A stretch of 64,000 nucleotides of DNA from Candidatus Spongiisociaceae bacterium (GTDB taxonomy: Bacteria; Actinomycetota; Acidimicrobiia; Spongiisociales; Spongiisociaceae): positions 1,088,001 to 1,152,000 of the forward strand of contig CBDCOH010000002.1 of NCBI GenBank assembly GCA_965219685.1, in the 5' to 3' direction. Positions within the stretch are counted from its first letter, which is position 1; each line of letters begins with the position of its first letter. Made by a program: the position numbers and the translations under genes. Under the pieces are notes generated by a model, which did no database searches, was not told the origin of the DNA, and was given only the letters and a program-made list of their open reading frames with translations. Below are positions 9,431 through 64,000 of this stretch, piece by piece.

Positions 9431-9491
9431 ATTCCCCGGAGCCCGGGACCGGGGGTCCGTGACGGCTCCACGACAGGGTAACGTTCGGCGT

Positions 9492-10052
9492 ATGGACCTG
9501 GAACGGTATGTCGCCGAACGATCGAGCGTGAACGGTGACATCGTCAACGTCGACACGTTCGTAAACCACCGGGTCGATGCCCGGGTGATGGCGGAGATCG
9601 CCGAGCGGATCGTCGCGATAGCCGATCCGCTCCGGCCCGACGTGATCGTCACCGCCGAGGCGAGCGGGATTCCGCCCGCCCTGCTGACCGCGGCAGAGTT
9701 GGGATTGCCCATGATCTATGCCAAGAAATACGTCCTCCCCGGGCCGAGGGAGGCGGTGAGCAGGGAGGTCGGGTCCGCTACCAAGGGTTTCGAGTACACG
9801 ATCGAGATCCGGCGCCGGGTGATGGAGCCCGGTCTCCGGGTCTTGGTCGTCGACGACTTCCTGGCTCAGGGAAGGACCGCGCTGGCCCTGGGCGAGATCG
9901 TCGAGGAGCTCGGATGCCGGATGCTGGGAGCGGTGTTCGCGATCGAGAAGTCCTGGGTGAGGGGACGACGGTTGCTGGAGGACCGCGGCTGGCCGGTCTG
10001 GTCGGTGATCGAGATCATGTCCGTGGACGGGGGCGTGATCCGGTTTGCCTGA
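9492..10052 (+). CDS. xpt: Xanthine phosphoribosyltransferase
   Basis: VDTFVNHRVD, TAEASGI, YAKK, PRPP motif VLVVDDFLAQG, IEKS. Start taken at ATG 9492 (ORF track begins 9459). Confidence 0.85.
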   Translation: MDLERYVAERSSVNGDIVNVDTFVNHRVDARVMAEIAERIVAIADPLRPDVIVTAEASGIPPALLTAAELGLPMIYAKKYVLPGPREAVSREVGSATKGFEYTIEIRRRVMEPGLRVLVVDDFLAQGRTALALGEIVEELGCRMLGAVFAIEKSWVRGRRLLEDRGWPVWSVIEIMSVDGGVIRFA

Positions 10053-19004: not shown

Positions 19005-19328
19005 TCAGCGGCCCTGCCGTTCCATCACATAGCGTGTCACGCGCAGGATCTGTTCCTCGTTCAGGGTTCCCCGGAAGGACGGCATCCGGCCGATCCCGGC
19101 GGAGATCGACTGGACGAAGTAGCGCTCGGGCTTGTCGATGGAGCGGGCGTCCTCCCCCACCAGGGCGAGCCCGGTCCCGCCCTGCAGATCCTCGCCGTGA
19201 CAGCGGGCGCACACCTGCACGTAGATCTCCTGCCCGGTTGCGTCCTCGGGCACTCCCCCGCCGCCGCACGCATAGATCAGGAGCGTCATGGCGGCGACGA
19301 TCCCCACTCTCAGAACACGGACAATCAC
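19005..19328 (-). CDS. Monoheme cytochrome c lipoprotein
   Basis: Signal peptide ending LIYAC, heme motif CARCH, axial GRMPSF; GTGA overlap with the upstream gene. Confidence 0.85.
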   Translation of the reverse strand: MIVRVLRVGIVAAMTLLIYACGGGGVPEDATGQEIYVQVCARCHGEDLQGGTGLALVGEDARSIDKPERYFVQSISAGIGRMPSFRGTLNEEQILRVTRYVMERQGR

Positions 19329-19696
19329 GACGCCCTGTTGCCCCGGATCGAGTTGAGGTAGTTGTAGATCGTGATGCGGCTGACGCCCATCAGGTCGGCG
19401 ACCTCCTCTATGGACTTGCGCAGCCGGAAGGCTCCCCGCTCGTCCAGGAGGCGGACCGCCACCTGTTTCTGCACCCGTCCCAGGTCGGTCAGCTTGCCGC
19501 CCAACTCCGTCTCCACCTGGCCGACCATGCGATCGAGGACGTTGTGGAGGGACAGGATCCTTACTCCCGCCACCACCCGTCCCTCCCACTCCAGCGGGAC
19601 CGAGTTCCCGTCCATGCTGGTCGGCTCCACTATCTCCGCGCCCAGCGCGTCGGTCAGCGGCCGGATGGCCTCGATCAGCGGGTGCTCGCCACTCAT
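19325..19696 (-). CDS. HTH transcriptional regulator (HTH_22/YheO-DauR-like C-terminal domain)
   Basis: KQVAVRLLDERGAFRLRKSIEEVADLMGVSRITIYNYLN; ATG at 19696 overlaps the upstream stop. Confidence 0.85.
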   Translation of the reverse strand: MSGEHPLIEAIRPLTDALGAEIVEPTSMDGNSVPLEWEGRVVAGVRILSLHNVLDRMVGQVETELGGKLTDLGRVQKQVAVRLLDERGAFRLRKSIEEVADLMGVSRITIYNYLNSIRGNRAS

Positions 19697-19923
19697 GGTG
19701 TGACGGTCATGTTGACCGACACCCGGCTTGCGCCGGCGTCCATCGCCGCCCGGACGCAGTCGACGGCGGCGTGGAACACGATCTCGAGCGAGCCCTCTAT
19801 GGCGGTGCCGAACGGACCGATGTCCGGCCCGTAGGGCGAGAGGACGTCGATGGCTGCTTGGACATGGGGACCCGGGTTCCCCTCCTCGAACGGTTCTACG
19901 GTGAACTCGGCACGGGCCGGCAA
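19693..19923 (-). CDS. Small ferredoxin-fold protein, thiamine-binding/YkoF-like
   Basis: TTG start after GGAGAAGGA; AEFTVEPF..G.PGPHV, DIGPFGT, AMDAGASRVSV. Confidence 0.7.
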   Translation of the reverse strand: MPARAEFTVEPFEEGNPGPHVQAAIDVLSPYGPDIGPFGTAIEGSLEIVFHAAVDCVRAAMDAGASRVSVNMTVTP

Positions 19924-20000: not shown

Positions 20001-20015
20001 TTGACAAAATGTAAA
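20001..20015. promoter_or_regulatory. Palindromic operator candidate TTGACA-AAA-TGTAAA in the divergent HTH/xdh promoter
   Basis: 13/15 identical to the reverse complement of the site at 35689-35703; its left half is also a consensus -35 TTGACA. Confidence 0.65.
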
Positions 20016-20098: not shown

Positions 20099-22681
20099 AT
20101 GACCCTGATCGCCCACAGGACGATAGGTTTCAGGCTCAACGGACGTGATGTCTCTGTTCGGGCCGACCACCCCCACCTGCTGTCAGCGCTCCGCGAGGAA
20201 CTCGACATCACCTCGGCCAAGGACGGCTGTGCTCCGTCAGGTCAGTGCGGATGCTGCACGGTCCTGGTCAACGGCCGGGCTTTCGTGGCCTGCGTCCTGG
20301 CCCTTGAGAAGGTGGCGGGCAAGGAGGTCGTCACCCTCGAAGGATTCGACCCGGTCGAACGTGACCGTCTGGCCTCCGCCTTCGCAGTCACCGGCGCACT
20401 CCAGTGCGGCTTCTGCACGCCGGGGATCCTCGTCAGGACCAAGGCGCTGATCGACCAGAAGGGTTCCCGGCTCAACAAGCGGGTCACAGCCGGGAGGTTG
20501 GGAGCGCACCTCTGCCGCTGCACCGGTTACACGAAGATCTTCGACGCGATCGACATGCTGGCCTCCGGCGAGATCCCGCCGCTGGAGACGTCGGGCGGGA
20601 TCGGCAAGTCGGGTATCAAGTACGAGGCGTTGGAGCTGGCCCTGGGAGACCGCGACTACATCGACGACATCCGCTTCGACGGCATACTCCACGGGGCATT
20701 GCGGCTCACCGACCACGCCCGAGCCGACGTGGTGAGGATCGACACCGGTCCGGCGGAGGCCATTCCGGGCGTGCATGCCGTGTTCACCGCGGCCGATGTG
20801 CCCGGGGAGTTGCGGGTGGGCCTCATCCACAAGGACTGGCCGGTGCTGATTCCGGAGGGTGGGCGTACCTCCTACTACGGGGACGTTCTGGCCATCGTCG
20901 TCGCCGACGACAGGCTGGCGGCCCGCGAGGCGGCCGCGGCCATCGAGATCGAGTACCGCGTGCTGAAGCCGTTCACCGATCCGGCCGAGGCGGTGGCCTC
21001 CTCGGAGGACGCGGTGTGGGGCCTGGAAGGAAACGTCCTGTCCGTTTCCAAGTACCGGCGGGGGGACTTCGAGTCCGCATACGAGGCGTCGCCCCACAAG
21101 CTGCATGAGACGTTCGTCACCCAGCGGGTCGAGCACGCCTTCCTGGAGCCCGAGTCGACGCTGGTGGTTCCGGCGGGGAATGGGCGGTTGATGCTCTACT
21201 CCGGTGGCCAGGGGGTATGGGACGACCGCGACCAGGTGGCCTCGGTGCTGGGAGTCGAACCCTCGCAGATCACCGTGGAGCTCATCTCGAACGGGGGCGC
21301 CTTCGGCGGCAAGGAGGACATGGCCAACCAGGCGCAGACGGCCCTCGCCGCCCACCTGCTCGGTCGCCCCGTCAAGTGCACACTGTCGAGGGAGGAGTCC
21401 CTCCGCATCCACTCCAAGCGCCACCCCATCCGCATCGAGCTGTGGGCGGGCTGCGACAGCGACGGCAAGTTCACCGCCCTCAAGGCCCGCATGCTGGGCG
21501 ACTCGGGTCCCTACGCCTCTGTGGGTATGAAGGTCCTCGAGCGGGCCGCGGGGCATGCCAGCGGTCCCTACGTGGTGCCCAACATCGACGTGAAGGCCGT
21601 TGCGGCCCGCACCAACAACCCGGTGTGCGGCGCGTTCCGGGGCTTCGGCGCCAACCAGGCCCAGTTCGCCATGGAGGGAGTGATAGACCGCCTTGCAGAG
21701 CAGGTCGGGATCTCGGGCTGGGAGATGCGGAGTCGCAACGTCATCGAACCCGGGGTCGTCTGGGGTCCGGGCCAGGTGATGGACGAAGGCTGCCGGGGCG
21801 CCCGCGAGTCGCTCAACGCGGTCAAGCCTCATTACGACGCGGCCCGGGCCGCGGGCAAGGCCGTAGGGGTCGGACTGGGTCTCAAGAACAGCGGTCTGGG
21901 GAACGGCTTCAAGGAGGTGGCGCGCGCGGTGGTCCGCTTCACACGGGACGGGGCCGTCGAGGTGCGGCACTGCTGGACCGAGATGGGTCAGGGCATCCAT
22001 ACCGTGGCCCAACAGGTGGCGGCCGAGGAGTTGGGCATCGATCCCAAGCGGATCAGGGTGATCGTCGACACCAGCCGCGAACTCGGGGCCGGGCAGACCA
22101 CCGGCTCCCGGGGCACGCTGATGGGGGCGGGAGCGGTACAGGCCGCCAGCCGCGCCGCTGACGCCGGCGGGAGACTTCCCGATGTCGACTACCACGGCGA
22201 ATACCGGATCGACTGGACCAACTCGCTCAAGGAGGGTCTGGCGAACCCGACGATCCACTCCGCCTTCGGCTATGCGTCCCAGCTGGTCATAGCCGACAAG
22301 GCGACCGGGAAGATCGAGCGGGTGGTGGCCGCCCACGACGTGGGCCGGGCCATGCACCCGGTGTTGTGCGAGGGCCAGATCGAAGGCTCGGTCCACATGG
22401 GCCTCGGCTATGCACTGACCGAGGACTTCCCGGCCGACGACCAAGCCCGCCCCACCAACATGACGCTGCGCAGCCTGGGGATCATCCGCCCCAAGGACAT
22501 GCCGTACGTGGACGTGATCCTGGTCGAGGTCCCCCAGCCTCGCGCCCCCTACGGCATCAAGGGGGTCGGTGAGATTGGGCTGGTCCCGACCGCCGGGGCG
22601 GTGGCGGCTGCACTGCACGAGGTGGACGGGCAATGGCGGAATCGCCTTCCCATGGGTGTCCACCAGCCGGTCACCAAGTGA
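20099..22681 (+). CDS. Xanthine dehydrogenase-family molybdo-hydroxylase with fused 2x[2Fe-2S] domain (selenium-dependent XDH-like architecture)
   Basis: KDGCAPSGQCGCC, QCGFCTPG, CRCTGY, HAFLEPE, GGAFGGKE, AFRGFG..Q, EMGQG, TTGSR, GQIEG, KGVGE; about 860 aa. Confidence 0.9.
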   Translation: MTLIAHRTIGFRLNGRDVSVRADHPHLLSALREELDITSAKDGCAPSGQCGCCTVLVNGRAFVACVLALEKVAGKEVVTLEGFDPVERDRLASAFAVTGALQCGFCTPGILVRTKALIDQKGSRLNKRVTAGRLGAHLCRCTGYTKIFDAIDMLASGEIPPLETSGGIGKSGIKYEALELALGDRDYIDDIRFDGILHGALRLTDHARADVVRIDTGPAEAIPGVHAVFTAADVPGELRVGLIHKDWPVLIPEGGRTSYYGDVLAIVVADDRLAAREAAAAIEIEYRVLKPFTDPAEAVASSEDAVWGLEGNVLSVSKYRRGDFESAYEASPHKLHETFVTQRVEHAFLEPESTLVVPAGNGRLMLYSGGQGVWDDRDQVASVLGVEPSQITVELISNGGAFGGKEDMANQAQTALAAHLLGRPVKCTLSREESLRIHSKRHPIRIELWAGCDSDGKFTALKARMLGDSGPYASVGMKVLERAAGHASGPYVVPNIDVKAVAARTNNPVCGAFRGFGANQAQFAMEGVIDRLAEQVGISGWEMRSRNVIEPGVVWGPGQVMDEGCRGARESLNAVKPHYDAARAAGKAVGVGLGLKNSGLGNGFKEVARAVVRFTRDGAVEVRHCWTEMGQGIHTVAQQVAAEELGIDPKRIRVIVDTSRELGAGQTTGSRGTLMGAGAVQAASRAADAGGRLPDVDYHGEYRIDWTNSLKEGLANPTIHSAFGYASQLVIADKATGKIERVVAAHDVGRAMHPVLCEGQIEGSVHMGLGYALTEDFPADDQARPTNMTLRSLGIIRPKDMPYVDVILVEVPQPRAPYGIKGVGEIGLVPTAGAVAAALHEVDGQWRNRLPMGVHQPVTK

Positions 22682-23697
22682 ACACCACAGCTGGTCTCGT
22701 CTGTGCCCATCATCACCTCTACTCCGCGCTGGCGCGCGGGATGCCCGCTCCCCCTCAGGTGCCCACCACATTCCAGGGCATCCTCGACCAGGTCTGGTGG
22801 CGGCTCGACACCGCCCTCGACCTCGAGATGATCCGCTGGTCGGCCATGCTGGGCGCCCTCGAGGCGCTCGAGTCGGGCACCACCGGGATCGTGGACCACC
22901 ACGAGTCACCCAACGCCATCGAAGGCAGCCTGTCGGTGATCGCCGACGCCTGCGCCGAGGTGGGCGTCCGGGTACGGCCTTGCTATGGCGTGACCGACCG
23001 GCACGGACCGGACGGGGCCCGCCGCGGTCTCGAGGAGAACCGCCGCTTCCTGTCGGAGGGCGGGGAGGGAATGGTGGGGATCCACGCTGCGTTCACATGC
23101 GAGCAGGGGACCCTCGAGGAAGCCGCGGCCCTCGCCGATGAACTCGACGCCGGCGTGCATGTCCATGTCGCCGAGGGACCGGAGGATGAGGCGGGACCCG
23201 AGCGACTCGACGGTCTCACGCGGGACGAGTGGCTGCTCGCCCACGGAGTTCACCTCGCCACGGACCACGGTCTGAGTGGGACCATTCTCCACAATCCGCG
23301 GTCCAACCTCAACAACTCGGTCGGGTACGCCGACCCGGCCCGCTTCTCCAACCGGATCGCGCTCGGAACCGACGGGATCGGCGCCAACATGATCGAGTCC
23401 TTCCGCCTCGCCTACGTGATGCACCGGTCGGTCGACGTGGCCGCTACCCCCGAGACTGCATGGAGTTGGATGGAGAACGGATGGGATCTGATCCCCGAAT
23501 GCCGTAACGACCTGGTCACGTGGAGCTACGACCCGATGGATCCCTGGCACGTGGCGTTCACGTCCGGGATCCGGCCCCTGGGGGTAGAGGTGGACGGTGA
23601 GGTGATGTTCAAAAACGGCTCACCCACCAGGGTGGACGCCGCCGAGGTTCGCGCCAAGGCGCGCGAGCAGGCGACCCGGCTGCATGCCAGGCTTTGA
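22678..23697 (+). CDS. ssnA: SsnA-like amidohydrolase
   Basis: CAHHHLYSALARGM, WWRLD.ALD, GTT...DHHESP, HAAFT, HVHVAEG, HNPRSN.NN.VGY, LGTDG; GTGA overlap with xdh. Confidence 0.8.
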   Translation: MNTTAGLVCAHHHLYSALARGMPAPPQVPTTFQGILDQVWWRLDTALDLEMIRWSAMLGALEALESGTTGIVDHHESPNAIEGSLSVIADACAEVGVRVRPCYGVTDRHGPDGARRGLEENRRFLSEGGEGMVGIHAAFTCEQGTLEEAAALADELDAGVHVHVAEGPEDEAGPERLDGLTRDEWLLAHGVHLATDHGLSGTILHNPRSNLNNSVGYADPARFSNRIALGTDGIGANMIESFRLAYVMHRSVDVAATPETAWSWMENGWDLIPECRNDLVTWSYDPMDPWHVAFTSGIRPLGVEVDGEVMFKNGSPTRVDAAEVRAKAREQATRLHARL

Positions 23698-23719
23698 CTA
23701 CGTGGTTTAGGAGGGTGCG

Positions 23720-25510
23720 ATGACAGCTCCGAATGGAGTCCACGAACCGCTCACGCCTTTCGGTCTCTCCGACCTGCTCGACCGGATCGCCTACGAATGG
23801 GACTCGCGTCGCCGCATCTTCGACCTGCCCATCGCCCGCTTCTTCAACGTGTCCGAGGGTCCCGACATCTCGATCGACTTCCTGGGACGACCCGCCGCCA
23901 CGCCGGTGGGGCCGGCTGCCGGACCGCACAGCCAGATGGCGCAGAACATCATCCTGTCGTGGCTCGGCGGGGGCCGGCTGATGGAACTCAAGACGGTGCA
24001 GATCCTCGACGAACTGGAGATCGGGCGACCCTGCATCGACATGGAGACCATCGGCTACAACATCGAGTGGAGCCAGGAACTGAAGATCCCCCAGTCGCTC
24101 GAGGAATATGTCAAGGCCTGGATGATGCTCGAGATCATGCGCAACTGGGAGGAACTCACCCCTTACATCGGCAGCGATCCGGGTCCGTGCATCTTCGACC
24201 TGTCGGTCGGGTACGACCTGGCGGGAATCTCGACCGACCAGGTGGCCTGGTTCATCGACTCGATGATGGACGCCACCGAGGAGATCGAGCGTCTCCGGCC
24301 CGAGATTGACGGGAAGTTCACCCGGTTCCGCGACCTGGAGTTCCCGTCCCGCATCGCCGACACCGTGACCCTGTCGACGTTCCACGGCTGCCCACCCGAT
24401 GAGATCGAGTCGATCACAAAGCACCTGATCACCCGCCACGGGCTGGACGTGATCGTGAAGCTCAACCCCACCCTGCTCGGGTTCGAGCGGGTCAAGGAGA
24501 TCGTGCAGCAGACCCTGGGGTACGAGTCCACGGTGCTGCGCCGAGCGGACTTCGACAACGACCTCCAGTTCGACAGAGGCCTCGAGTTGATCGGCGAACT
24601 GCAGCGCTTTGCCGAAGACCACGGGCGCCGGTTCGGTGTCAAGCTCACCAACACCCTGGTCGTCGAGAACACCAAGGGGTTCATGCCCGATGAGACCATG
24701 TACCTGTCGGGGCCGCCGCTGCATGTCGTGTCCACCACGCTCTTGGGCGAGTTGCACAAGGCCCTGCCGGGGAGGCTGCGGATCGACGGTCAGGACGGCC
24801 CGGTGCAGGTGTCGTTCTCGGCAGGTATCACCAAGGAGAACCTCCCGGATGCAGCCGCGCTCGGGCTGGCACCGTTGACGATCTGCTCGGACCTCCTGAA
24901 GCCGGGCGGGTACGGGCGCATCAAGCCGATGCTGAAGGCACTGCAGAAGGTGATGGTCGGTGCAGGTTCGGGATCCCTGTCCGATTGGCAGGCCCATCGG
25001 GGCGCGCTGTCGAACGGGAGAGGAGCGGTGGCCGCCTACATAGCCCGGCTCCACGACCCGGCCACCAACGGGCGCTACACCCTGGAGGGCAACTCGAAGC
25101 TGCCCAGGGCCGTGGACCACGACCTGCAGATGTGGGGATGCGTGGCATGCAACTTCTGCGTCACCGTCTGTCCCAACGACGCCTTCTTCCGGATACCCAC
25201 CCCGCCCGAACTCGACGCGGTGGGCCTGCAGCAGTACCTGGTGTTGGCCGAGTTGTGCAACGAGTGCGGCAACTGCATGGTGTTCTGCCCCGAAGCGGGC
25301 GACCCGGCCGTCATCAAGCCCCGGCTCTACATGACCGAGCACCGCTTCCAGCAGGAGACCGAGCAGGCATTCCTGGTCCACCAGGATCCGGACGGCTACT
25401 GGGTACAGCCCAACGCCGAGGGCGCCCAGTGGACCGGCGACCTGCTCCTCCTGCTGAACGGCGCCGAGGGCTTCGTGCTGCCCCCGTCCACAAAGCCGGT
25501 CAGGAAGTAG
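23720..25510 (+). CDS. ygfK: YgfK-like oxidoreductase, short form (N-terminal barrel plus C-terminal 2x[4Fe-4S]; no FAD/NAD(P)H module)
   Basis: PVGPAAGPHSQMAQNI...ELKTVQILDEL, YNIEWSQEL, TLSTFHGCPPDEIE, KLNPTLLG, GVKLTNT, MYLSG, CSDLLKPGGYGR, then directly CVACNFCVTVCP and CNECGNCMVFCP. Confidence 0.8.
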   Translation: MTAPNGVHEPLTPFGLSDLLDRIAYEWDSRRRIFDLPIARFFNVSEGPDISIDFLGRPAATPVGPAAGPHSQMAQNIILSWLGGGRLMELKTVQILDELEIGRPCIDMETIGYNIEWSQELKIPQSLEEYVKAWMMLEIMRNWEELTPYIGSDPGPCIFDLSVGYDLAGISTDQVAWFIDSMMDATEEIERLRPEIDGKFTRFRDLEFPSRIADTVTLSTFHGCPPDEIESITKHLITRHGLDVIVKLNPTLLGFERVKEIVQQTLGYESTVLRRADFDNDLQFDRGLELIGELQRFAEDHGRRFGVKLTNTLVVENTKGFMPDETMYLSGPPLHVVSTTLLGELHKALPGRLRIDGQDGPVQVSFSAGITKENLPDAAALGLAPLTICSDLLKPGGYGRIKPMLKALQKVMVGAGSGSLSDWQAHRGALSNGRGAVAAYIARLHDPATNGRYTLEGNSKLPRAVDHDLQMWGCVACNFCVTVCPNDAFFRIPTPPELDAVGLQQYLVLAELCNECGNCMVFCPEAGDPAVIKPRLYMTEHRFQQETEQAFLVHQDPDGYWVQPNAEGAQWTGDLLLLLNGAEGFVLPPSTKPVRK

Positions 25511-25548
25511 GAACCCGTCCCGGTTCGTAGCGGCAGAGGGAGTGACCG

Positions 25549-26001
25549 ATGAGCCACACGATGGAGGATGTACGCCGCTTCGTCGGCGCTGACCACGGCC
25601 TGTCGGTGGTCTCTTTCGGGCGTCCTGACCAGTCCGTCCATTCCACCGTTGTCAACGCAGGTGTGATGGACCACCCGGTGACCTGCGAGGAAGTGGTGGC
25701 CCTGGTGGTGAGGGGTAACACCGTCAAGCTCCGCCACTGGCGCCACACGCCGCGGGCCGGCATCGTCTTCCGGTCCGGTTGGTTCTGGGCGGGCGTAGAG
25801 GGAACTACCAGCATCATCGGCCCGGATGATCCGTTCGAAGGGTTCGAGCCGTCAGCAGTGCCGCAGTTGCTCCGCGACGTGTTCACGGCCGCCGGGGGGA
25901 CCCACGAGGACTGGGACGAGTACGACCGCGTCATGGCGGCCGAGCGCCGGGCCGCGGTCTTCATCCACCCGACCCGCATCACCGGAGTCGGCCGACCCTG
26001 A
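25549..26001 (+). CDS. Pyridoxamine-5'-phosphate-oxidase-like (PPOX class, probably F420-dependent) oxidoreductase
   Basis: STVVNAGV..HP, K.R..R..P, W..VEG, LLRDVFTAAGGTHEDWDEYDRVMAAERR. Confidence 0.8.
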   Translation: MSHTMEDVRRFVGADHGLSVVSFGRPDQSVHSTVVNAGVMDHPVTCEEVVALVVRGNTVKLRHWRHTPRAGIVFRSGWFWAGVEGTTSIIGPDDPFEGFEPSAVPQLLRDVFTAAGGTHEDWDEYDRVMAAERRAAVFIHPTRITGVGRP

Positions 26002-31094: not shown

Positions 31095-32555
31095 TCATCC
31101 GAGTCCGGTGAGGCTGTTGAACTCCTCTATGAGTCGGTCGATGGGGTCGGCCAAGGTCTGGATGCTGGTCCAGTAGTCGTCGTCGTACCACTGGGCCTGG
31201 ATCTCCTCGTATGTCTTGCCCTGTTGCTCCACCCAGGTGTAGTACTTGAGGTTGTGGATGCGCTTGCGGTCGTAGTAGCCGAGTTCGTGGACGTGTTCGG
31301 TGGAGGCCCCCAGCAGGTGGCGGTGGTAGGCGGCCACCGCGTCGTGGGTGGTGAACGTGCCGCGGTCCTCGCTGAGTTCGTGGAGCCGGCTCCGGTACAT
31401 GTCCATCGAGTCGGTGGCGATGGTGACCACTATGTCCCGGCTGGTCATCTCGTAGTACTTGGCGAGTTTGACGGCGGACAGCAGGTTGGCGGCGCCGGAG
31501 ATGCCGAGCAGGGGAAGGCTTCCTAGGACATCGGGATCTACTCCTTGCGATGCCAGGTACTCCCGGCCTGGCGCCTCGTTGAACAGCCGGGTGAGGGACA
31601 TGGCGGCCTCGTCGTCGAGCCCGATGGCGAGGTCGGTGTTCTTGACGTTGTGGACCCAGGGGATGTGCTTGTCGCCGATTCCCTCGATGCGGTGCTCCCC
31701 GAAGCCGTTCAGCAGCATGGTGGGACACTGGATGGCCTCACCCCCGGCGATCACCGAGCCGGGGAATCGCTGCTTCAGGTAGTCGCCGGCGGCGATGGTT
31801 CCGGCCGAGCCGGTGGTGACCGCGAACCCCCGGAACCGGTCGCGCTCGCCCATCACGTCGTCCAACACCTCCTCGACGGCGGGGCCGGTGACCGACACGT
31901 GCCACAGGTAGTTTCCGAACTCGTCGAACTGGTTGAAGATCATCAGGTCCTCGCCGGAGGCGGCCAACTCGTTGCACTTGTCGAAGATCTCCTTGACGTT
32001 CGACTCCGAACCGGGAGTCTTGATGATCTCCCCGGCCACCGTCTGCAACCACTCGAAGCGCTCGCGGCTCATCCCCTCCGGGAGGATCGCCACCGACTCG
32101 CAGCCCAGCAGGTTGGAGTCGTAGGCGCCGCCGCGGCAGTAGTTCCCCGTGGAAGGCCACACCGCCTTCTGGGTTGACGGGTCGAACTGTCCGGTGACCA
32201 GGCGGGGAACCAGGCAGCCGAAAGCCGCTCCCACCTTGTGGGCGCCGGTCGGGAACCACTTGCCGATCAGGGAGATGATCCGGGCCTCGACACCGGTCAG
32301 TTCGGACGGCCACTCGACGTAGTTGACTGGTCCGAACCCGCCCCCTTGGGCGACCGGTTCGTTGTGCCAGGTGATCCGGTACAGGTTGAGGGGGTGGAGA
32401 TCCCACAGACCGATGCCCGCGAGGCCTGACCGGACCTCGGATGGGATCAGGTTCGGGTCCCGCATCTGGGCGAGGGTCGGGATGCGCACCCGGCGCTCCC
32501 TGGTGTGGGCCGCCACCGACTCGAGGGCGGCCGCGTCAACGGTCAGATCGATCAT
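31095..32555 (-). CDS. Fold-type II PLP-dependent enzyme (cysteine synthase/beta-subunit-like, function unknown)
   Basis: GKWFPTGAHKVGA (PLP Lys), WPSTGNYCRGG, GSAGT, HRIEGIGDKHIPW, GISG.AN. Confidence 0.85.
   Translation of the reverse strand: MIDLTVDAAALESVAAHTRERRVRIPTLAQMRDPNLIPSEVRSGLAGIGLWDLHPLNLYRITWHNEPVAQGGGFGPVNYVEWPSELTGVEARIISLIGKWFPTGAHKVGAAFGCLVPRLVTGQFDPSTQKAVWPSTGNYCRGGAYDSNLLGCESVAILPEGMSRERFEWLQTVAGEIIKTPGSESNVKEIFDKCNELAASGEDLMIFNQFDEFGNYLWHVSVTGPAVEEVLDDVMGERDRFRGFAVTTGSAGTIAAGDYLKQRFPGSVIAGGEAIQCPTMLLNGFGEHRIEGIGDKHIPWVHNVKNTDLAIGLDDEAAMSLTRLFNEAPGREYLASQGVDPDVLGSLPLLGISGAANLLSAVKLAKYYEMTSRDIVVTIATDSMDMYRSRLHELSEDRGTFTTHDAVAAYHRHLLGASTEHVHELGYYDRKRIHNLKYYTWVEQQGKTYEEIQAQWYDDDYWTSIQTLADPIDRLIEEFNSLTGLG
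32542..32555. repeat. 14-bp direct repeat, copy 1 (GTCAGATCGATCAT; first 14 nt of the PLP gene)
   Basis: Identical to 33398-33411. Confidence 0.85.
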
Positions 32556-32698
32556 ATTCAGGCGTCCTTCGGCCCTGTTGGGCCGGGTAGTGGTCCATTA
32601 CGGTCGATCCTCCTGCCTGTGCAGGGTGATCTGCTCTCCACAGTTCCGATCGGGCCAGGGCCGGTGCGGATCATCGAACAAGGTCGCAGTAGGACGGT

Positions 32699-32917
32699 TT
32701 ACGACCATACCCTCTCGTTGACCACGATCGCGCCAACATCGGTCTCGTCTATGTCGAGCGAACAGGCGATCAGGTCGCGTGCGGCATTCTCCACCTCGTC
32801 GAAGTGCGCCGCCTGCGTGTAGCCGAACTTCAACCCGAGCACCCTGACTGCCCACCAGCCATCGGCCGTGTTGAACGCTTCAACCTGGTACATATCGGTC
32901 GTACCTAGGGTTGTCAC
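32699..32917 (-). CDS. Short HicB-like antitoxin
   Basis: YQVEA....GWWAVRV......TQA..FDEVE..ARDLIA; GTGA overlap with hicA; no C-terminal DNA-binding domain. Confidence 0.7.
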   Translation of the reverse strand: MTTLGTTDMYQVEAFNTADGWWAVRVLGLKFGYTQAAHFDEVENAARDLIACSLDIDETDVGAIVVNERVWS

Positions 32918-33111
32918 CGGACGGCCTCCCTGGCTTCTCTGAGGATTGCTCTGGCAGTATGTTCGTTGACCTCGCGGTGACGGGGGATGTAGACCCGCTC
33001 GCCGCCAAACGTCCATATCTGATGGCTGCGACCCTCACGGAGGAAGCGGAACTCCACGTCGGCCGACTTGGCGATGATCCGGAGTTGCCTCACGAGGTTC
33101 CGCCTTTTCAT
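32914..33111 (-). CDS. HicA-like toxin
   Basis: MKRRNLVRQL...REGRSHQIW...IPRHREVNEHTARAILR. Confidence 0.8.
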   Translation of the reverse strand: MKRRNLVRQLRIIAKSADVEFRFLREGRSHQIWTFGGERVYIPRHREVNEHTARAILREAREAVR

Positions 33112-33397
33112 AAGAGGTTAACAGTCGTTATGTGCCGTGCGAGCCTGGCCACCCTGCCATGTGGCAGTGCTGGCTTCAATACCTACGCGGTGCGGGTGCC
33201 GGCCGGTCATACAGATGTTGTATCAACGACACATGGCCCCATCAACCCCTTCGTGTTGTGCCGAACCGGACTGGGCACGGTGCGGGTGCGACCTCCGAGT
33301 GGCAGTTCCTCCATATAAGTCGAGAGTGCCAAACAAGAGCGATCGCCTTTGGCTCCGCCAACGCCCGGCGCCCGATGCGAACTCGTTGTCGCCAATA

Positions 33398-33411
33398 GTC
33401 AGATCGATCAT
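33398..33411. repeat. 14-bp direct repeat, copy 2; begins a dead MIDLT... start overlapping the thrC-like stop
   Basis: Identical to 32542-32555; the ATG overlaps the TGA of the upstream gene (ATGA). Confidence 0.85.
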
Positions 33412-34715
33412 GTCTGCTTCCTTAGCTTCCGGATCCACTGTTCCATTCTGGTGGCTATCTCGTCGGGGTCCAGCCCGTCCGGACCCGGACGGACCGGCAG
33501 GGGTACCGCGCCTGTCCTGTCGATCCCGCGCATCACCCCGCGGATGTCCTTCAGACCAGATCCGGTGGAGATGACCACCACCCGGTCGAGGGTCCCCTCC
33601 CCCCGCGGGTCTCCCTGCGATCCGTCCGCCACTTCGGCCAGCCCGGCGAAGGCGGCCGCCGCGGCCGGTTCGGGAAAGATGCCGGAGTCGGCCGACACAG
33701 TCGGGATCATCTCCAGGATGGCCTCGTCATCGACCGTCACCCATGCACCCCCGGTCTCGACTACCGCGGCCATCGCCTTGACTCGATCGCGGGGCAGGTC
33801 GGCGCTGATGGAGTCGGCGGCGGTGTCGGCGGCGACGGGCTGTTTGGTGACCACATCCTCCTCCTCCAGCCAGGCCTCGGCCAGATAGGAGCTGCCTTCG
33901 GCCTGCACTCCGTAGATGCGGGGCATGCGGTCGATCCATCCCAGTTTCAAGGCGTCCTTGAAGCCCTTGTGCACCCCTCCGATGATCGACCCGTCGCCCA
34001 CGCTTACGAACACCGCGTCCGGCGCCTCCCAGCCCAGTTGCTCGGCGATCTCCAGGGCCACGGTCTTCTTGCCTTCTCCCACGTAGGGATTGATCCCGGT
34101 GTTCCGGTTGTACCAACCGAAGCGTGCCACCGTTTCCTGGCATAACCGGAAGGCGTCGTCGTAGGTGCCCTCCACGAGCATCACGAACGCCCCGAAGGCG
34201 AGGAGTTGGGCGACCTTCGCCTCCGGTGCGGTGTCGGGGACGAAGATCACCGCGGTCTGGCCGGTTCCTGCCGCGAGACCGGCCAGGGCGGCGGCGGCGT
34301 TTCCCGTGGACGCGGTGGTGACCGTCTCGGCCCCTTCCTGGGCAGCTCTGGCCAGTGCGACCGCCGAGGCCCGGTCCTTGAGGGAAGCGGTCGGCTGGCG
34401 CCCCTCGTCCTTGATCCAGAGTCGCCCTACGCCCCAGCGCCGGGCCAGTCTCTCCGCCTCGACGAGCGGGGTCCCGCCCACTCCGAGAGCGGAGACAACC
34501 GTGGAGGACCCGACAGGAAGCAGGGGGCGGTAGCGCCACATGGACCGGTCCGGGTCTGCCGCCAGGCTCTCGCGTGTCAGCGTTTCGTTGATGGCGGCGT
34601 AGTCGTAGCGGGCGTCGAGGGTGCCCGCATCGCCGCAGCGGTCGCATACGTAGCGGCCCGGAGAGGGTTGGTACGACGCGGCGCAGACGGTGCATCGCAG
34701 CCCGGTCAGGTACAT
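33408..34715 (-). CDS. Threonine synthase-like fold-II PLP enzyme with N-terminal Zn ribbon
   Basis: CTVC/CDRC, SMWRY..LLP, GGTPL, PTASLKDR, ASTGNA, EGKKT, VGDG, EPAAA, TGSGLKD. Confidence 0.85.
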   Translation of the reverse strand: MYLTGLRCTVCAASYQPSPGRYVCDRCGDAGTLDARYDYAAINETLTRESLAADPDRSMWRYRPLLPVGSSTVVSALGVGGTPLVEAERLARRWGVGRLWIKDEGRQPTASLKDRASAVALARAAQEGAETVTTASTGNAAAALAGLAAGTGQTAVIFVPDTAPEAKVAQLLAFGAFVMLVEGTYDDAFRLCQETVARFGWYNRNTGINPYVGEGKKTVALEIAEQLGWEAPDAVFVSVGDGSIIGGVHKGFKDALKLGWIDRMPRIYGVQAEGSSYLAEAWLEEEDVVTKQPVAADTAADSISADLPRDRVKAMAAVVETGGAWVTVDDEAILEMIPTVSADSGIFPEPAAAAAFAGLAEVADGSQGDPRGEGTLDRVVVISTGSGLKDIRGVMRGIDRTGAVPLPVRPGPDGLDPDEIATRMEQWIRKLRKQT

Positions 34716-34718
34716 CCG

Positions 34719-35657
34719 CTAGGCAGGTGGTACGGCGCCACGCCGCTCGGTGATCAGCCCGTAGTGCTCGTGCATCCGGTAGTAGTCGAAGTCGAACAAT
34801 GTCTGCTTGTAGGTGTCGCAGAAGTCGAGGTCGATGGTGGTCGAGATCACCTCGTCCTCGGTGGTGACCGCTTGGGCGATGATCTGCCCGGACGGGGCGA
34901 TGATGACGCTCTGGGCGAGGCTGTCCACCCCCTCCTCGATTCCCCCCTTGGCGACCCCGACCACGAAGGCGCCGTTCTGGTAGGCGCCGGCCTGCATCAC
35001 GAGGTGGTTGTGGAATCCGGACAGCGCGTTCTGGGTGGGGTCGGGCGCGTAGTGGAGCGGGGTGTTGTAACCGATCAGGATCAGCTCGGCTCCCTGCAGG
35101 CCGAGCACCCGGTAGGTCTCCGGCCAGCGGCGGTCGTTGCAGATCGCCATCCCTACGATCCCGCCGAAGGCGTTCCAGGCTCCGAACCCGTCCGGCCCCG
35201 GCTCGAAGTAGTGCCGCTCGGCGTGCTGGAACTCCCGCCACGGCTCGTATTGGGCGTGGCCGGGTATGTGTATCTTGCGGAACTTGGATACCACGGTCCC
35301 GTCGCGTTCCACCAGTATGTAGGTGTTGTAACGATGCTCGACGCCCTGGTCGTCGGTGGCGATCTCCGCGTACCCGAGCGCGAACCCGATCCCAAGGCGG
35401 CGCGCCTCGTCGAACAGCGGCTTGGTGTCGCGGTCGGGCATCTCCCGGTGGTAGTAGTGCTCGAACTCGGCGGGGTCCGCGACGAACCATCGCGGGAAGA
35501 AGGTCGTCATGGCCAGCTCCGGGTAAACCAGCAGGTCGACCCCTTGGTCGTGTGCATCGTGCAGCATCGTCATCAGGCGGTCCACCACTTCGCTCTTCGA
35601 CTCTTCCCGGGCGATGGGGCCCATCTGGCCCGCGCCGACGGTGATCCGTCTCGACAT
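34719..35657 (-). CDS. N-carbamoyl-D-amino-acid amidohydrolase (nitrilase superfamily)
   Basis: QMGPI, PELAMTTFFPRW, RKIHIPGH, ICNDRRWPE, GYNTP, QAGAYQN. Confidence 0.9.
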   Translation of the reverse strand: MSRRITVGAGQMGPIAREESKSEVVDRLMTMLHDAHDQGVDLLVYPELAMTTFFPRWFVADPAEFEHYYHREMPDRDTKPLFDEARRLGIGFALGYAEIATDDQGVEHRYNTYILVERDGTVVSKFRKIHIPGHAQYEPWREFQHAERHYFEPGPDGFGAWNAFGGIVGMAICNDRRWPETYRVLGLQGAELILIGYNTPLHYAPDPTQNALSGFHNHLVMQAGAYQNGAFVVGVAKGGIEEGVDSLAQSVIIAPSGQIIAQAVTTEDEVISTTIDLDFCDTYKQTLFDFDYYRMHEHYGLITERRGAVPPA

Positions 35658-35688
35658 CTGAGAATCCTCCTCGGTCTATCGCTGTTAT

Positions 35689-35703
35689 TTTACAGTTTGT
35701 AAA
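35689..35703. promoter_or_regulatory. Palindromic operator candidate TTTACA-GTT-TGTAAA between the divergent carbamoylase genes
   Basis: Perfect 6-3-6 palindrome; matches 20001-20015. Confidence 0.7.
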
Positions 35704-35750
35704 CTGCGGTGCGGTCCCGAGGGTGGCCGTGTCGAGGCAAGGAGGTCAGG

Positions 35751-36593
35751 ATGGCGAATGTGGTGCGGGCGGCGCTGGTCCAGAGCGAGTGGACGGGCGA
35801 CAAGGAGTCCATGATCGAGAAGAACATCGGGTACGCCCGCGAGGCCGCCGCGCAGGGGGCGCAGATCCTGTGCTTCCAGGAGATCTTCAACACCCCGTAC
35901 TTCTGCACGCACCAGGAGAACGAGCACTTCGCAACCGCCGAACCCATCCCCGAGGGTCCCACCGTCTCCAGGATGATCGAGTTGTCTCGCGAGACCGGAA
36001 TGGTGCTGATCGTCCCGATCTTCGAGGTGGAGGACACCGGCCACTACTACAACGCCGCGGCGGTCATCGACGGCGACGGCACCTACCTCGGCAAGTACCG
36101 CAAGACCCACATTCCCCAGGTGGCCGGCTTCTGGGAGAAGTTCTACTTCCGGCCCGGCAATCTCGGCTATCCGGTCTTCGACACCACCGTGGGCCGCATC
36201 GGCATCTATATCTGCTACGACCGCCACTTTCCCGAGGGCTGGCGGGAGCTGGGTCTGGCCGGCGCAAAAATCGTCTTCAACCCCTCCGCCACCACCCGGG
36301 GCCACTCCAAGTATCTGTGGGAGTTGGAACAACCGGCCGCCGCGGTGGCCAACGAGTACTTCGTGGGCGCCATCAACCGGGTCGGAAGCGAGAACCTGGA
36401 GGGTACCGACTACTACGGCAGTTCCTACTTCGCCTCGCCCCGGGGGCAGATCATCGGGGGTACCGCCTCGGACACCGCCGACGAGGTGGTGGTGAGGGAT
36501 CTTGACCTCGACCTGATCGAGGAGGTTCGCCACCATTGGGCTTTCTACCGGGATCGCCGCCCCGAGATCTACGACCGGATCGCGACTCCCTGA
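35751..36593 (+). CDS. Nitrilase-family hydrolase, beta-ureidopropionase-like
   Basis: RBS AAGGAGG; FQEIFNTPYFC, GKYRKTHIP, FWEKFYFRPG, ICYDRHFPEG, FNPSAT, FYRDRRPE. Confidence 0.9.
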   Translation: MANVVRAALVQSEWTGDKESMIEKNIGYAREAAAQGAQILCFQEIFNTPYFCTHQENEHFATAEPIPEGPTVSRMIELSRETGMVLIVPIFEVEDTGHYYNAAAVIDGDGTYLGKYRKTHIPQVAGFWEKFYFRPGNLGYPVFDTTVGRIGIYICYDRHFPEGWRELGLAGAKIVFNPSATTRGHSKYLWELEQPAAAVANEYFVGAINRVGSENLEGTDYYGSSYFASPRGQIIGGTASDTADEVVVRDLDLDLIEEVRHHWAFYRDRRPEIYDRIATP

Positions 36594-62115: not shown

Positions 62116-64000
62116 TCAGCGAGAACTGAGTGCCACGTGCTCGGGCCTGACCGGGGTGCGGCCTAATTCGAGGCCGGTGGCCTCGCGGATGGCAGCCACT
62201 ACCGCTGCCGTGGAGGATACGGTGGGTGGTTCTCCGACGCCTTTGGCGCCGAACGGGCCGAAGGAGCTGGGTTCCTCGATCACCTCTATGTCGATGGGCG
62301 GGGCGTCCAGGAAGGTGGGCAGCAGGTAGTCGGTGAAGGTGGGGTTCTTGATCACCCCGTCCTCGACGACGACCTCCTCGAGGGTGGCGAGACCGATCCC
62401 CTGCATGGTCCCGCCCTCTATCTGGCCGACCACCGAGCGGGGGTTGATCATGAAGCCGACATCCTGGACCGTGTCGACCTGCACCACCCGGAACAGTCCC
62501 AACTCCTGGTCCACATCGACGACAGCCCGGTGGGCGGCGAAGGCGAAGTCCACGTGGAGGTCGCCCTGGCCTCTCTCGTCCGGCTCCTCGGTCTGCGGGT
62601 GGTGGAACCGGGTGTGGTACTCGATGTTCTCCCGGCCGACCAGGTCCCGCATCGGGGTCACCAGGACGCCGTCCTTCCAGACCCCCTCCCCGTCCAACCG
62701 GTCGCCGCCGCCTCTCTGCAGCGCGATCTCGCGCGCCATCCGGGCAGCCTCCATGACCGCTCCCCCGGTCATCTGCGTCTGGCGGGACGCCGAAGTGGAA
62801 CCGGCCGACCCGATCTTGGACGTGTCGTCGTAGTAGACGACCACATCCTCGATCCCCAGGACGGTCCGGGCGATCTGGGCGCACGCCATTCCGAGTCCCT
62901 GGCCCACCTCGACCGCGGCGGTGTGCACCTCCACGCCGAACGGCGTGATGACCACCCGGGCCTCCGAGTAGTCGTCGAAGCCGGCGGAGAAGCACAGGTT
63001 CTTGATACCGACGGCGTAGCCGACCCCGCGTCTCACCACCGGTCGGGAGGTGGTGAGGCCGGTGCCGCCCGGGAGGAGGCGCGGGTCGTCGCTATGGTTC
63101 TGCGGCGGCAGGGGCACCCGGCGCAGCCGCTCGAGGATCTCCACCACCGGCGCCGATGTGTCGATCACCTGGCCGGACGTGGCGAGCGGGTCCCCCCGGC
63201 GCAACGCGTTACTGATCCGGAGTTCCACGCGGTCCATTCCCAGGGCGTCGGCCAGCTTGTCCATCTGCGCCTCGTGGCCGAAGCAGGCCTGCACCGCTCC
63301 GAAACCGCGCATCGCCCCGCACGGGGGGTTGTTGGTCTTGACGGCAACTCCGTCGACGGCCACCGAGTCGCAGCGGTACGGTCCGGCGGCGTGATAGACG
63401 GCGTTGCCGATCACAGAGTTGCTCGTGGACTGGAAGGCGCCCCCGTCGATGATGATCCTCGCCTCGATACGGCGCAGCGTTCCGTCCGGGTCCGCCTCGT
63501 GGCGCATCCACAACTGCGCCGGGTGGCGGTGGACATGGCCGACGAAGCTCTCGGCCCGGCTGTAGACCATCTTCACGGGCCTCCCCGTGTACAGGGCCAG
63601 CAGGCAGAGATGGATCTGGAGGCTCACGTCTTCCCTGGCGCCGAAGGCCCCTCCCACACCGGCGTGATGGACCCGCACCGCGTCGTCGGCCACTCCTAGG
63701 CCCGCCACGATCTGCTCGTGGTCGACGTGCGTCCACTGGGTGGCGATGTGCAGGTCGACCCCGCCCCGGTCGTCGGGGATGGCCAGGCCCGACTCGGTTC
63801 CGAGTGGCGCCTGATCCTGCATCCCGACCTCGTAGTAGCCCTCCACGACTACCGAACCCCCGGCGTCCTGGGGGCCTCTCCGGCAACTGATCCGATGGAA
63901 CACGGAGTCGACGGCGTCGGCCTCCTCGGGATCGGTCAGCGGTGCCAACACGTCGTAGTCGATGTCGATTGCCTCCACCGCGAGGCGGGCCGTCTCGGGA
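62116..64000 (-). CDS. Xanthine dehydrogenase molybdopterin-binding subunit (PucD-like); 5' end beyond the window
   Basis: QDQAPLGTESG, GGAFGARE, AMRGFGAVQ, EVGQG, GSTSASRQT, GQIEGG, GAKGVGE. Confidence 0.92.
   Translation of the reverse strand, partial: PETARLAVEAIDIDYDVLAPLTDPEEADAVDSVFHRISCRRGPQDAGGSVVVEGYYEVGMQDQAPLGTESGLAIPDDRGGVDLHIATQWTHVDHEQIVAGLGVADDAVRVHHAGVGGAFGAREDVSLQIHLCLLALYTGRPVKMVYSRAESFVGHVHRHPAQLWMRHEADPDGTLRRIEARIIIDGGAFQSTSNSVIGNAVYHAAGPYRCDSVAVDGVAVKTNNPPCGAMRGFGAVQACFGHEAQMDKLADALGMDRVELRISNALRRGDPLATSGQVIDTSAPVVEILERLRRVPLPPQNHSDDPRLLPGGTGLTTSRPVVRRGVGYAVGIKNLCFSAGFDDYSEARVVITPFGVEVHTAAVEVGQGLGMACAQIARTVLGIEDVVVYYDDTSKIGSAGSTSASRQTQMTGGAVMEAARMAREIALQRGGGDRLDGEGVWKDGVLVTPMRDLVGRENIEYHTRFHHPQTEEPDERGQGDLHVDFAFAAHRAVVDVDQELGLFRVVQVDTVQDVGFMINPRSVVGQIEGGTMQGIGLATLEEVVVEDGVIKNPTFTDYLLPTFLDAPPIDIEVIEEPSSFGPFGAKGVGEPPTVSSTAAVVAAIREATGLELGRTPVRPEHVALSSR

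Follow-up and report, generated by a model that had tools for sequence, protein, structure and literature searches.

Can an environmental actinobacterium that carries genes for oxygen respiration break down urate by the oxygen-free, reductive route of gut bacteria? The question is raised by a four-gene operon, xdh-ssnA-ygfK-PPOX, in a 64,000-nucleotide stretch of DNA (the window; positions 1,088,001 to 1,152,000 of contig CBDCOH010000002.1) from a Candidatus Spongiisociaceae bacterium. Judged from the sequence, the window probably encodes a regulon in two parts by which urate is catabolised reductively, along a route of the 2,8-dioxopurine type, with pyruvate and ammonia as the end products. 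The operon is the front half of this regulon, and the back half consists of hydrolases and pyridoxal phosphate (PLP) enzymes encoded 5-10 kb away, within the window. The gut-bacterial route is most likely present here with enzymes swapped, in a host genome where uricase was not found. A first-pass annotation of the window had suggested a rewired purine route from the operon, and this idea is supported by the substitute back-half genes (31095-36593) and by an operator common to both gene sets. Both had been overlooked, as had the half length of YgfK.

Enzymes of the operon

The four open reading frames lie on the forward strand, as first described. The xdh gene (20099-22681, 860 aa) starts with ATG after a GGAGG sequence, and its stop codon is overlapped by the GTG start of ssnA (22678-23697, 339 aa). 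A 22-bp gap with AGGAGG separates ssnA from ygfK (23720-25510, 596 aa), and the gene for a PPOX-class putative F420 enzyme (25549-26001) follows after 38 bp. The best NCBIfam matches of the four proteins were taken together with the curated cut-offs, and are given below as score/cut-off in bits.

Xdh is a fused [2Fe-2S]-molybdenum hydroxylase of the XdhAC type (Fer2_2, Ald_Xan_dh_C and MoCoBD domains), without the flavin adenine dinucleotide (FAD) module. Its best match, over the full length, is TIGR03311 (Se-dependent XDH / XdhAC, 808.8/830.45). Its identity to the urate-cluster Xdh of E. faecalis is 39.7%, and that to E. coli XdhD is 24%. In a tree of 47 rows, which leaves out C. sporogenes XdhAC itself (FastTree, as for all trees here), Xdh belongs to a clade that is sister to the urate-cluster Xdh of E. 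faecalis and Collinsella, with support of 100, in agreement with its earlier assignment to this family. The GGKE, R, FRGFG and GVGE motifs are retained. At the TAAS-loop site, which we take to be residue 1078 in the bovine numbering, Xdh has a Thr where R. capsulatus XdhB has an Ala. This Thr agrees with the A1078T/S mark of Liu et al. (10.1101/2025.04.24.650524). From its family and motifs, Xdh is predicted to reduce urate to 2,8-dioxopurine.

YgfK (TIGR03315, 432/835) aligns only to residues 5-406 and 898-978 of E. coli YgfK, with 39% identity in both parts. Residues 407-897 have no counterpart, and the Fe-S/FAD/NADPH module (Fer4_20 and FAD/NAD(P)H domains) is therefore deleted from the window protein. 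What is left is an N-terminal barrel of the flavin mononucleotide type with the HGCP motif, and a C-terminal domain with two [4Fe-4S] sites. The CxxCxxCxxxCP motif is found at 474 and 513, and the eight Cys residues are invariant across 52 sequences. The predicted model has a confidence (pLDDT) of 93, and its top fold matches are DPD and DHODH. Long YgfK proteins of Acidimicrobiia retain the central FAD/NAD(P)H module. The FAD-less layout is present in 62 of the top 150 YgfK representatives at 50% identity, with named members in Deltaproteobacteria, Calditrichota and Myxococcales, and 67 of 72 rows of the short form are on one branch (support 91, midpoint root). Since this layout is widespread and falls largely on a single branch, the short YgfK represents a subfamily rather than a broken gene. 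Its placement in the YgfK family, as proposed earlier, is borne out by the alignment of both parts and by the tree, with a score that is under the cut-off. The short YgfK is predicted to be a 2,8-dioxopurine reductase. A GltD-like gene was considered as the detached module of YgfK and was rejected, as it adjoins a GltB-like gene. Four relatives (G399, G372, G238 and G303) carry the short and the long YgfK together, plus an XdhD-type region with YqeB.

SsnA (NF005540, 251/444; TIGR03314, 231/455.5) is 33% identical to E. coli SsnA and is the best match for the E. coli protein in the host genome. It is indeed short, at 339 aa compared to a family length of about 440 aa: roughly 55 residues are missing at the N terminus, as is part of the C-terminal sandwich. 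Its relatives are as short. The metal-site motifs (HxH, HxxE, H and GTD) are aligned and intact. When compared with 20 other amidohydrolases, it groups with the SsnA proteins of E. coli, E. faecalis and Collinsella (support 100), which places it in the SsnA clade. It is the predicted enzyme for opening the six-membered ring.

Back-half genes and the common operator

The first-pass annotation had stated that the downstream steps are missing from the window. This holds for the orthologs, and extends to the whole genome (4.4 Mb, 96.7% complete, 5.9% contamination). Orthologs of YgeW (best E 1.6e-7; UacY was not searched for specifically), YgeY (best 120 vs 321 bits) and YgeX (TIGR01747; best 36.9 vs 274 bits, E 2e-9), as well as carbamate kinase, were not found in the genome. 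A canonical yge cluster is present nowhere in it: the YgeW, YgeY and YgeX orthologs are missing, and three D-hydantoinases over the cut-off, the best being 41% identical to E. coli HyuA, are all located elsewhere. The statement does not hold for non-orthologous candidates, four of which are encoded at 31095-36593.

The first candidate, an N-carbamoyl-D-amino-acid hydrolase (D-carbamoylase; 34719-35657, reverse strand), matches solved D-carbamoylases over its full length (E 3e-113, 381 bits; next nitrilase class 63), and could serve as the 2-ureido hydrolase in place of YgeW/UacY. The second is a β-ureidopropionase-like enzyme of the nitrilase family (35751-36593, forward strand), a candidate 3-ureido hydrolase that would replace YgeY. 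It is 71% identical to a paralog in the pyrimidine-type operon of the genome, and its matches in the Protein Data Bank (PDB) are N-carbamoylputrescine amidase and β-ureidopropionase. (R)-2,3-Diureidopropionate belongs to the N-carbamoyl-D-amino acids, and albizziin is a β-ureidopropionate with an amino substituent. The former compound is the known intermediate of the route (10.1101/2025.04.24.650524), and the substrates expected for the two hydrolases from established chemistry would thus fit the intermediates.

The third and fourth candidates are PLP enzymes, both with the catalytic Lys. The threonine-synthase-like (ThrC-like) enzyme (33408-34715, reverse strand) is a candidate diaminopropionate ammonia-lyase that would substitute for YgeX. 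It is the sole TIGR01747 match in the host genome, at the sub-threshold E value given above, and scores 186 vs 167 with the broad TIGR00260 and 290 vs 303 with NF006050. The Arg of the NSVNPxR (NP-x-R) motif, which binds phosphate in threonine synthase, is replaced. Two further ThrC-like genes are found in the genome. The 486-aa enzyme (31095-32555, reverse strand; invariant Lys107) belongs to the cysteine-synthase/CBS branch, with fold matches to CBS and β-cyanoalanine synthase at 20-25% identity; no characterised relative was found. From this fold, β-replacement, racemisation and elimination are each possible. Two plasmid homologs (42%) are in unrelated amino-acid loci. The two PLP genes adjoin each other in nearly every locus examined, and a predicted complex of their products scored 0.00, which is evidence neither way. 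A role of the 486-aa enzyme as a YqeB substitute was judged unlikely, as 12 of 13 YqeB-positive genomes also carry it.

Between the two PLP genes of the window, a pair of HicA-like (32914-33111; Pfam match of 23 bits, under the cut-off) and HicB-like (32699-32893) genes is inserted at 32556-33407. The first 14 bases of the downstream PLP gene are repeated at both ends of the insert, and in relatives the two PLP genes overlap directly.

The closest named relatives are metagenome-assembled genomes of Acidimicrobiia, including Ca. Spongiisociaceae, with YgfK identity of up to 93%. Class-wide, YgfK was found in 78 of 401 genomes; for the order to which the host belongs, the count is 68 of the 109 genomes sampled. 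A panel of 80 genomes was formed from 50 of the 55 short-form genomes, 12 of the 22 with matches to the N-domain only (those loci that were checked encode the long form), and 18 of the 20 listed YgfK negatives; 303 unlisted negatives were left unused. The 486-aa PLP enzyme is the tightest partner of YgfK, present in 61/62 ygfK-positive and 0/18 ygfK-negative genomes. The window type of Xdh (52/62), the D-carbamoylase (41/62), the ThrC-like ortholog (37/62, counted at 56% identity or more, with weaker matches dropped), YqeB (13/62) and YgeX over its cut-off (7/62) are likewise missing from all 18 negatives. No panel genome has the ThrC-like ortholog (37 genomes) together with a second PLP partner, which is present in 21; with three exceptions, these two track two subtypes of the 486-aa enzyme. 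The relatives are not independent of each other, but the pattern is repeated in three mixed genera (g6, g10 and g11), within each of which the 486-aa enzyme tracks ygfK. Uricase is rarer in ygfK-positive genomes (2/62 vs 10/18); this carries little weight, as the 12 matches all come from a single family, and uricase occurs in genus g11 regardless of ygfK.

The same gene families recur around ygfK. Among 101 ygfK loci (the window, 20 fetched loci and 80 of 314 found by scan, with some genomes represented twice), the recurrent neighbors are the D-carbamoylase (49 loci), the 486-aa PLP enzyme (30), the ureidopropionase-like nitrilase (21), the ThrC-like enzyme, an M20 carbamoylase and PPOX (17 each), and carbamoyltransferases (10 each). 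In many relatives the D-carbamoylase gene is immediately upstream of xdh. Genes for purine deaminases, RidA-family proteins and ATP-binding cassette (ABC) transporters also recur beside the cluster. A carbamoyltransferase is in the fetched cluster of 19 of the 21 carbamoylase-negative genomes, which indicates that the decarbamoylation slot is conserved. One variant (L122, L147-L156, L170-L183) combines ATCase-like and OTCase-like carbamoyltransferases and carbamate kinase with the same two PLP enzymes, and frequently has a GntR-UTRA regulator and no operator; per urate, two ATP could be gained. In another, of the Acidimicrobiales type (L051, L100-L121), the ureidopropionase is replaced by an M20 hydantoinase/carbamoylase-family amidase, and the ThrC-like enzyme by a PLP partner of another kind.

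The common operator is the strongest independent link between the front and back halves. One site (TTGACA-N3-TGTAAA, 20001-20015) is located before xdh, its left half being the -35 consensus hexamer, and a perfect site (TTTACA-N3-TGTAAA, 35689-35703) lies between the divergent carbamoylase and ureidopropionase genes. The motif, TTKACA-N3-TGTMAA, was derived from 29 intergenic regions beside the divergent regulator, which included the site at xdh and not that at 35689. The window contains two matches, compared to 0.04 in shuffled sequences. Genome-wide there are two perfect sites, one for each gene set (0.054 expected; contig C2), and three with one mismatch elsewhere. Two one-mismatch sites are 97 bp apart (C2:3046241 and 3046338) in a region without called genes. 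In fetched relatives, 100 of 106 distinct sites immediately precede a gene of the pathway or one for a transporter or a regulator, a count biased by the selection of the loci around genes of these kinds; none is present in 169 kb of control loci. The operator is also found before PLP-enzyme genes far from ygfK in four of five genomes of family f14 (G067, G014, G235 and G099; G024 is the exception). Carbamoylase genes that are unlinked to the cluster have it in front of them in G390 and G342, but lack it in G366 and G122. At one mismatch or fewer, the E. coli and Collinsella clusters have no site, and that of E. faecalis shows only two-mismatch noise. A scan for sigma-70 promoters and terminators gave a result at chance level.

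The regulator is a YheO-like HTH_22 protein (19325-19696, reverse strand; PF13309, 65 bits) encoded divergently from xdh. It is coupled to a small gene of the thiamine-binding-protein family (19693-19923, reverse strand; PF01910, 34 bits), the two being fused in some relatives, and the protein cluster that takes in both is represented in 49 of the 101 ygfK loci. The HTH_22 protein likely binds the palindromic operator, and the small protein is a possible ligand sensor.

Proposed route and its alternatives

From the genes, their family placement, the domain loss, the co-occurrence and the common operator, we infer the following reactions. Xdh would strip the 6-oxo group off urate, giving 2,8-dioxopurine. 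The short YgfK would then reduce the ring at its flavin, with electrons reaching it through the two [4Fe-4S] clusters from an external carrier. This carrier is most likely ferredoxin or flavodoxin, ferredoxin being assumed by analogy with Li et al. (10.1101/2025.05.19.654654). SsnA would open the six-membered ring, and an unlinked D-hydantoinase, probably the copy in the pyrimidine operon, would open the five-membered ring to give (R)-2,3-diureidopropionate. The D-carbamoylase would hydrolyse the 2-ureido group to produce D-albizziin, and the β-ureidopropionase-like enzyme the 3-ureido group to produce 2,3-diaminopropionate. Finally, the two PLP enzymes, in sequence or as a pair, would convert this compound to pyruvate and ammonia. 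The YheO-like regulator would control both gene sets by binding the common palindrome. The ureido steps would bring no gain in ATP, as carbamoyltransferase and carbamate kinase are missing, and the yield would be nitrogen and pyruvate. Urease was not found in the host genome, which weakly disfavours a urea-releasing step. The first three steps are based on homology to tested enzymes, and the two decarbamoylations on enzyme family and substrate fit; the hydantoinase step, the PLP step and the electron donor are the weakest parts of the proposal.

The likely source of the hydantoinase step is a pyrimidine-type operon (C2:2787723-2798790) with genes for an ABC transporter, ureidopropionase, aminotransferase, dihydropyrimidinase, aldehyde dehydrogenase and a luciferase-like protein, named by reading the sequence, the hydantoinase excepted. 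A candidate supplier of urate is a three-subunit PucD-like xanthine dehydrogenase encoded at 62116-64000 of the window and beyond (594 vs 784 bits on the part in the window). A xanthine phosphoribosyltransferase-like gene is at 9459-10052, and numerous paralogs of molybdenum hydroxylases and amidohydrolases are found across the genome. Of the cytochrome c and mycothiol-type genes reported earlier, a cytochrome c gene and an MDMPI gene are inside the window, and the genome encodes cytochrome c oxidase subunit I (over the cut-off), the F420 ligase CofE and SelD. The selD gene (C2:2564589-2565512) has an in-frame TGA, probably encoding selenocysteine, which is common to most relatives. The genome also contains an ORF of 7,352 aa (C2:2993780-3015838).

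A more far-reaching reading is offered tentatively. Oxygen-respiring Acidimicrobiia of environmental origin might use this route as a replacement for uricase, with a DOPDH-type enzyme free of YqeB/YqeC, two redox enzymes without an NAD(P)H port, hydrolytic carbamoylase and ureidopropionase steps, and an obligate PLP pair performing a new reaction on diaminopropionate or albizziin.

Several observations weigh against reductive urate catabolism. All four operon proteins score under the cut-offs of their best NCBIfam families. The F1009V mark is ambiguous in Xdh, being Leu or Asn depending on the alignment (GLGN in the window vs GVGV). The C. sporogenes enzyme depends on SelD (10.1101/2025.04.24.650524) and C. 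difficile on YqeB (Johnstone and Self), and neither YqeB nor YqeC was found in the host genome. YqeB is present in 12 of the 52 panel genomes with the window type of Xdh; SelD is near-universal (75/80) and hence uninformative. Hydantoinase does not track ygfK (54/62 vs 17/18), is normally unlinked to the cluster, and is missing at E<=1e-100 from 8 of the 62 ygfK-positive genomes. No conserved electron-carrier gene was seen in the 101 ygfK neighborhoods. The 486-aa enzyme is kept in 6 of 7 genomes with a true YgeX, and is thus not a simple swap for it. No operator at one mismatch or fewer was found in 20 loci of the carbamoyltransferase type or in 33 of 80 ygfK loci, many on short contigs. Moreover, 14 of the 18 negative genomes are from one family, so that the panel counts overstate independence.

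The same back half could have a different entry, with Xdh working oxidatively (for instance on hypoxanthine, xanthine or a 2-oxopurine) and passing electrons straight to the FAD-less YgfK, in a redox-balanced and NAD(P)H-free scheme. We consider this unlikely. Xdh and YgfK both lack an NAD(P)H port and adjoin each other in most loci, the C. sporogenes enzyme is reversible in vitro (10.1101/2025.04.24.650524), and the lack of a conserved carrier gene nearby would fit. On the other hand, this Xdh type is missing from 7 of 50 short-YgfK genomes and present in 9 of 12 long-YgfK genomes, which shows that the two are not obligate partners, and its sister clade is the urate-cluster type.

Slightly less probable still is a regulon for a related N-heterocycle, such as a modified purine or a 5-substituted pyrimidine (for example 5-ureidouracil). 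The proteins are diverged (33-40% identity to tested or urate-cluster homologs), SsnA is remodelled, the YgfK fold is DPD-like, and the two additional PLP enzymes suggest other end chemistry. However, many relatives have purine deaminase genes and additional xdh genes on the flanks of the cluster, pyrimidines have a separate operon in the genome, and the D-carbamoylase suits an α-ureido acid, the product of the purine route.

PPOX (TIGR03618, 62/79) had been counted as a core member of the system. It is probably co-transcribed with ygfK, and its ortholog is present in 13/62 ygfK-positive and 0/18 ygfK-negative genomes; at nine loci fetched from outside the host family, no copy is near purine or pathway genes. 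PPOX looks incidental, outside the pathway core. That F420H2 powers the pathway through PPOX, in place of the FAD module lost from YgfK, is highly improbable: the proximity of the gene to ygfK, the presence of CofE, the short YgfK of all 13 PPOX-positive genomes and the F420 variant proposed for Chloroflexota (10.1101/2025.05.19.654654) speak for it, and the missing ortholog in 37 of 50 short-YgfK genomes, the nine unlinked copies and the many FAD-less YgfK forms in other phyla speak against it.

Comparison with known systems

We regard the locus as a new variant of the 2,8-dioxopurine pathway, one that falls outside the formal definitions of YgfK, SsnA, Se-dependent XDH and the canonical cluster. 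The first-pass annotation knew of no description in this lineage. This stands in part: the published text of Li et al. (PMC12507026) has no match to 'Acidimicrobi', 'carbamoylase' or 'nitrilase'. On the other hand, the same authors already list SsnA in Actinomycetota, as well as the FAD-less UacX, the hydrolytic UacY and an F420 variant, and Collinsella carries a canonical cluster. No paper on the present variant was found in the literature; Acidimicrobiia could be among the metagenome-assembled genomes tabulated by Liu et al. or in the network data of Li et al. The short SsnA and YgfK are under cut-offs and coverage filters of the kind used in both 2025 surveys, which may explain why they were passed over.

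A 2025 commentary by Percudani (PMC12990295) called the route restricted to anaerobes and listed as open questions the sequence in which the ureido groups are cleaved, the R/D stereochemistry, the source of electrons for XdhAC, and an ancient origin versus a gut adaptation. The present variant bears on each of these. A D-specific carbamoylase predicts the D configuration, with the 2-ureido group cleaved first. The frequency of YgfK in the host's order and that of FAD-less clusters among the top representatives (68/109 and 62/150) speak against an origin confined to the gut. Should Xdh work without YqeB, it would be a comparison point for selenium insertion into molybdenum hydroxylases and a simpler part for uricolytic probiotics.

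The closest known system is the 2,8-dioxopurine pathway of C. sporogenes (XdhAC/DOPDH, YgfK/DOPOR, SsnA, HyuA, YgeW, YgeY as well as YgeX; 10.1101/2025.04.24.650524). The FAD-less fused XdhAC architecture, the YgfK barrel with its C-terminal Fe-S domain, the SsnA clade and the clustering of the genes are alike. In comparison, the window YgfK has no NADPH/FAD module and the window SsnA is about 100 aa shorter. The host has no YgeW, YgeY, YgeX, carbamate kinase or YqeB/YqeC, its hydantoinase is unlinked, and it has a cytochrome c oxidase.

The reductive urate cluster of E. coli and the variant of it in C. difficile (XdhD-YgfM, YgfK or UacX, UacY; 10.1101/2025.05.19.654654 / PMC12507026) offer two precedents, one for a redox enzyme without FAD (UacX) and one for the loss of the 2-ureido group by hydrolysis (UacY). 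Unlike in these systems, the window reductase is not a PydA homolog but a true YgfK that has lost an internal segment, and ureido removal would be carried out by nitrilase-family enzymes rather than a D-aminoacylase or an M20 peptidase. The window Xdh is also distant from E. coli XdhD, as noted above.

The D-carbamoylases of the industrial hydantoinase process (PDB entries 8I99 and 1FO6) are matched over the full length by the window enzyme, whose gene is, in contrast, part of a purine regulon. This suggests diureidopropionate as a candidate natural substrate, and if the proposed route is correct, D-carbamoylase gains such a substrate. As in the reductive pyrimidine pathway (DPD/PydA, hydantoinase, β-ureidopropionase), a ring would be reduced and opened and a carbamoyl group removed, and the window ureidopropionase has its paralog in the pyrimidine operon of the host. 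Compared to that pathway, the proposed route adds an upstream molybdenum hydroxylase, and would involve opening two rings, removing two carbamoyl groups and a final lyase reaction by PLP enzymes.

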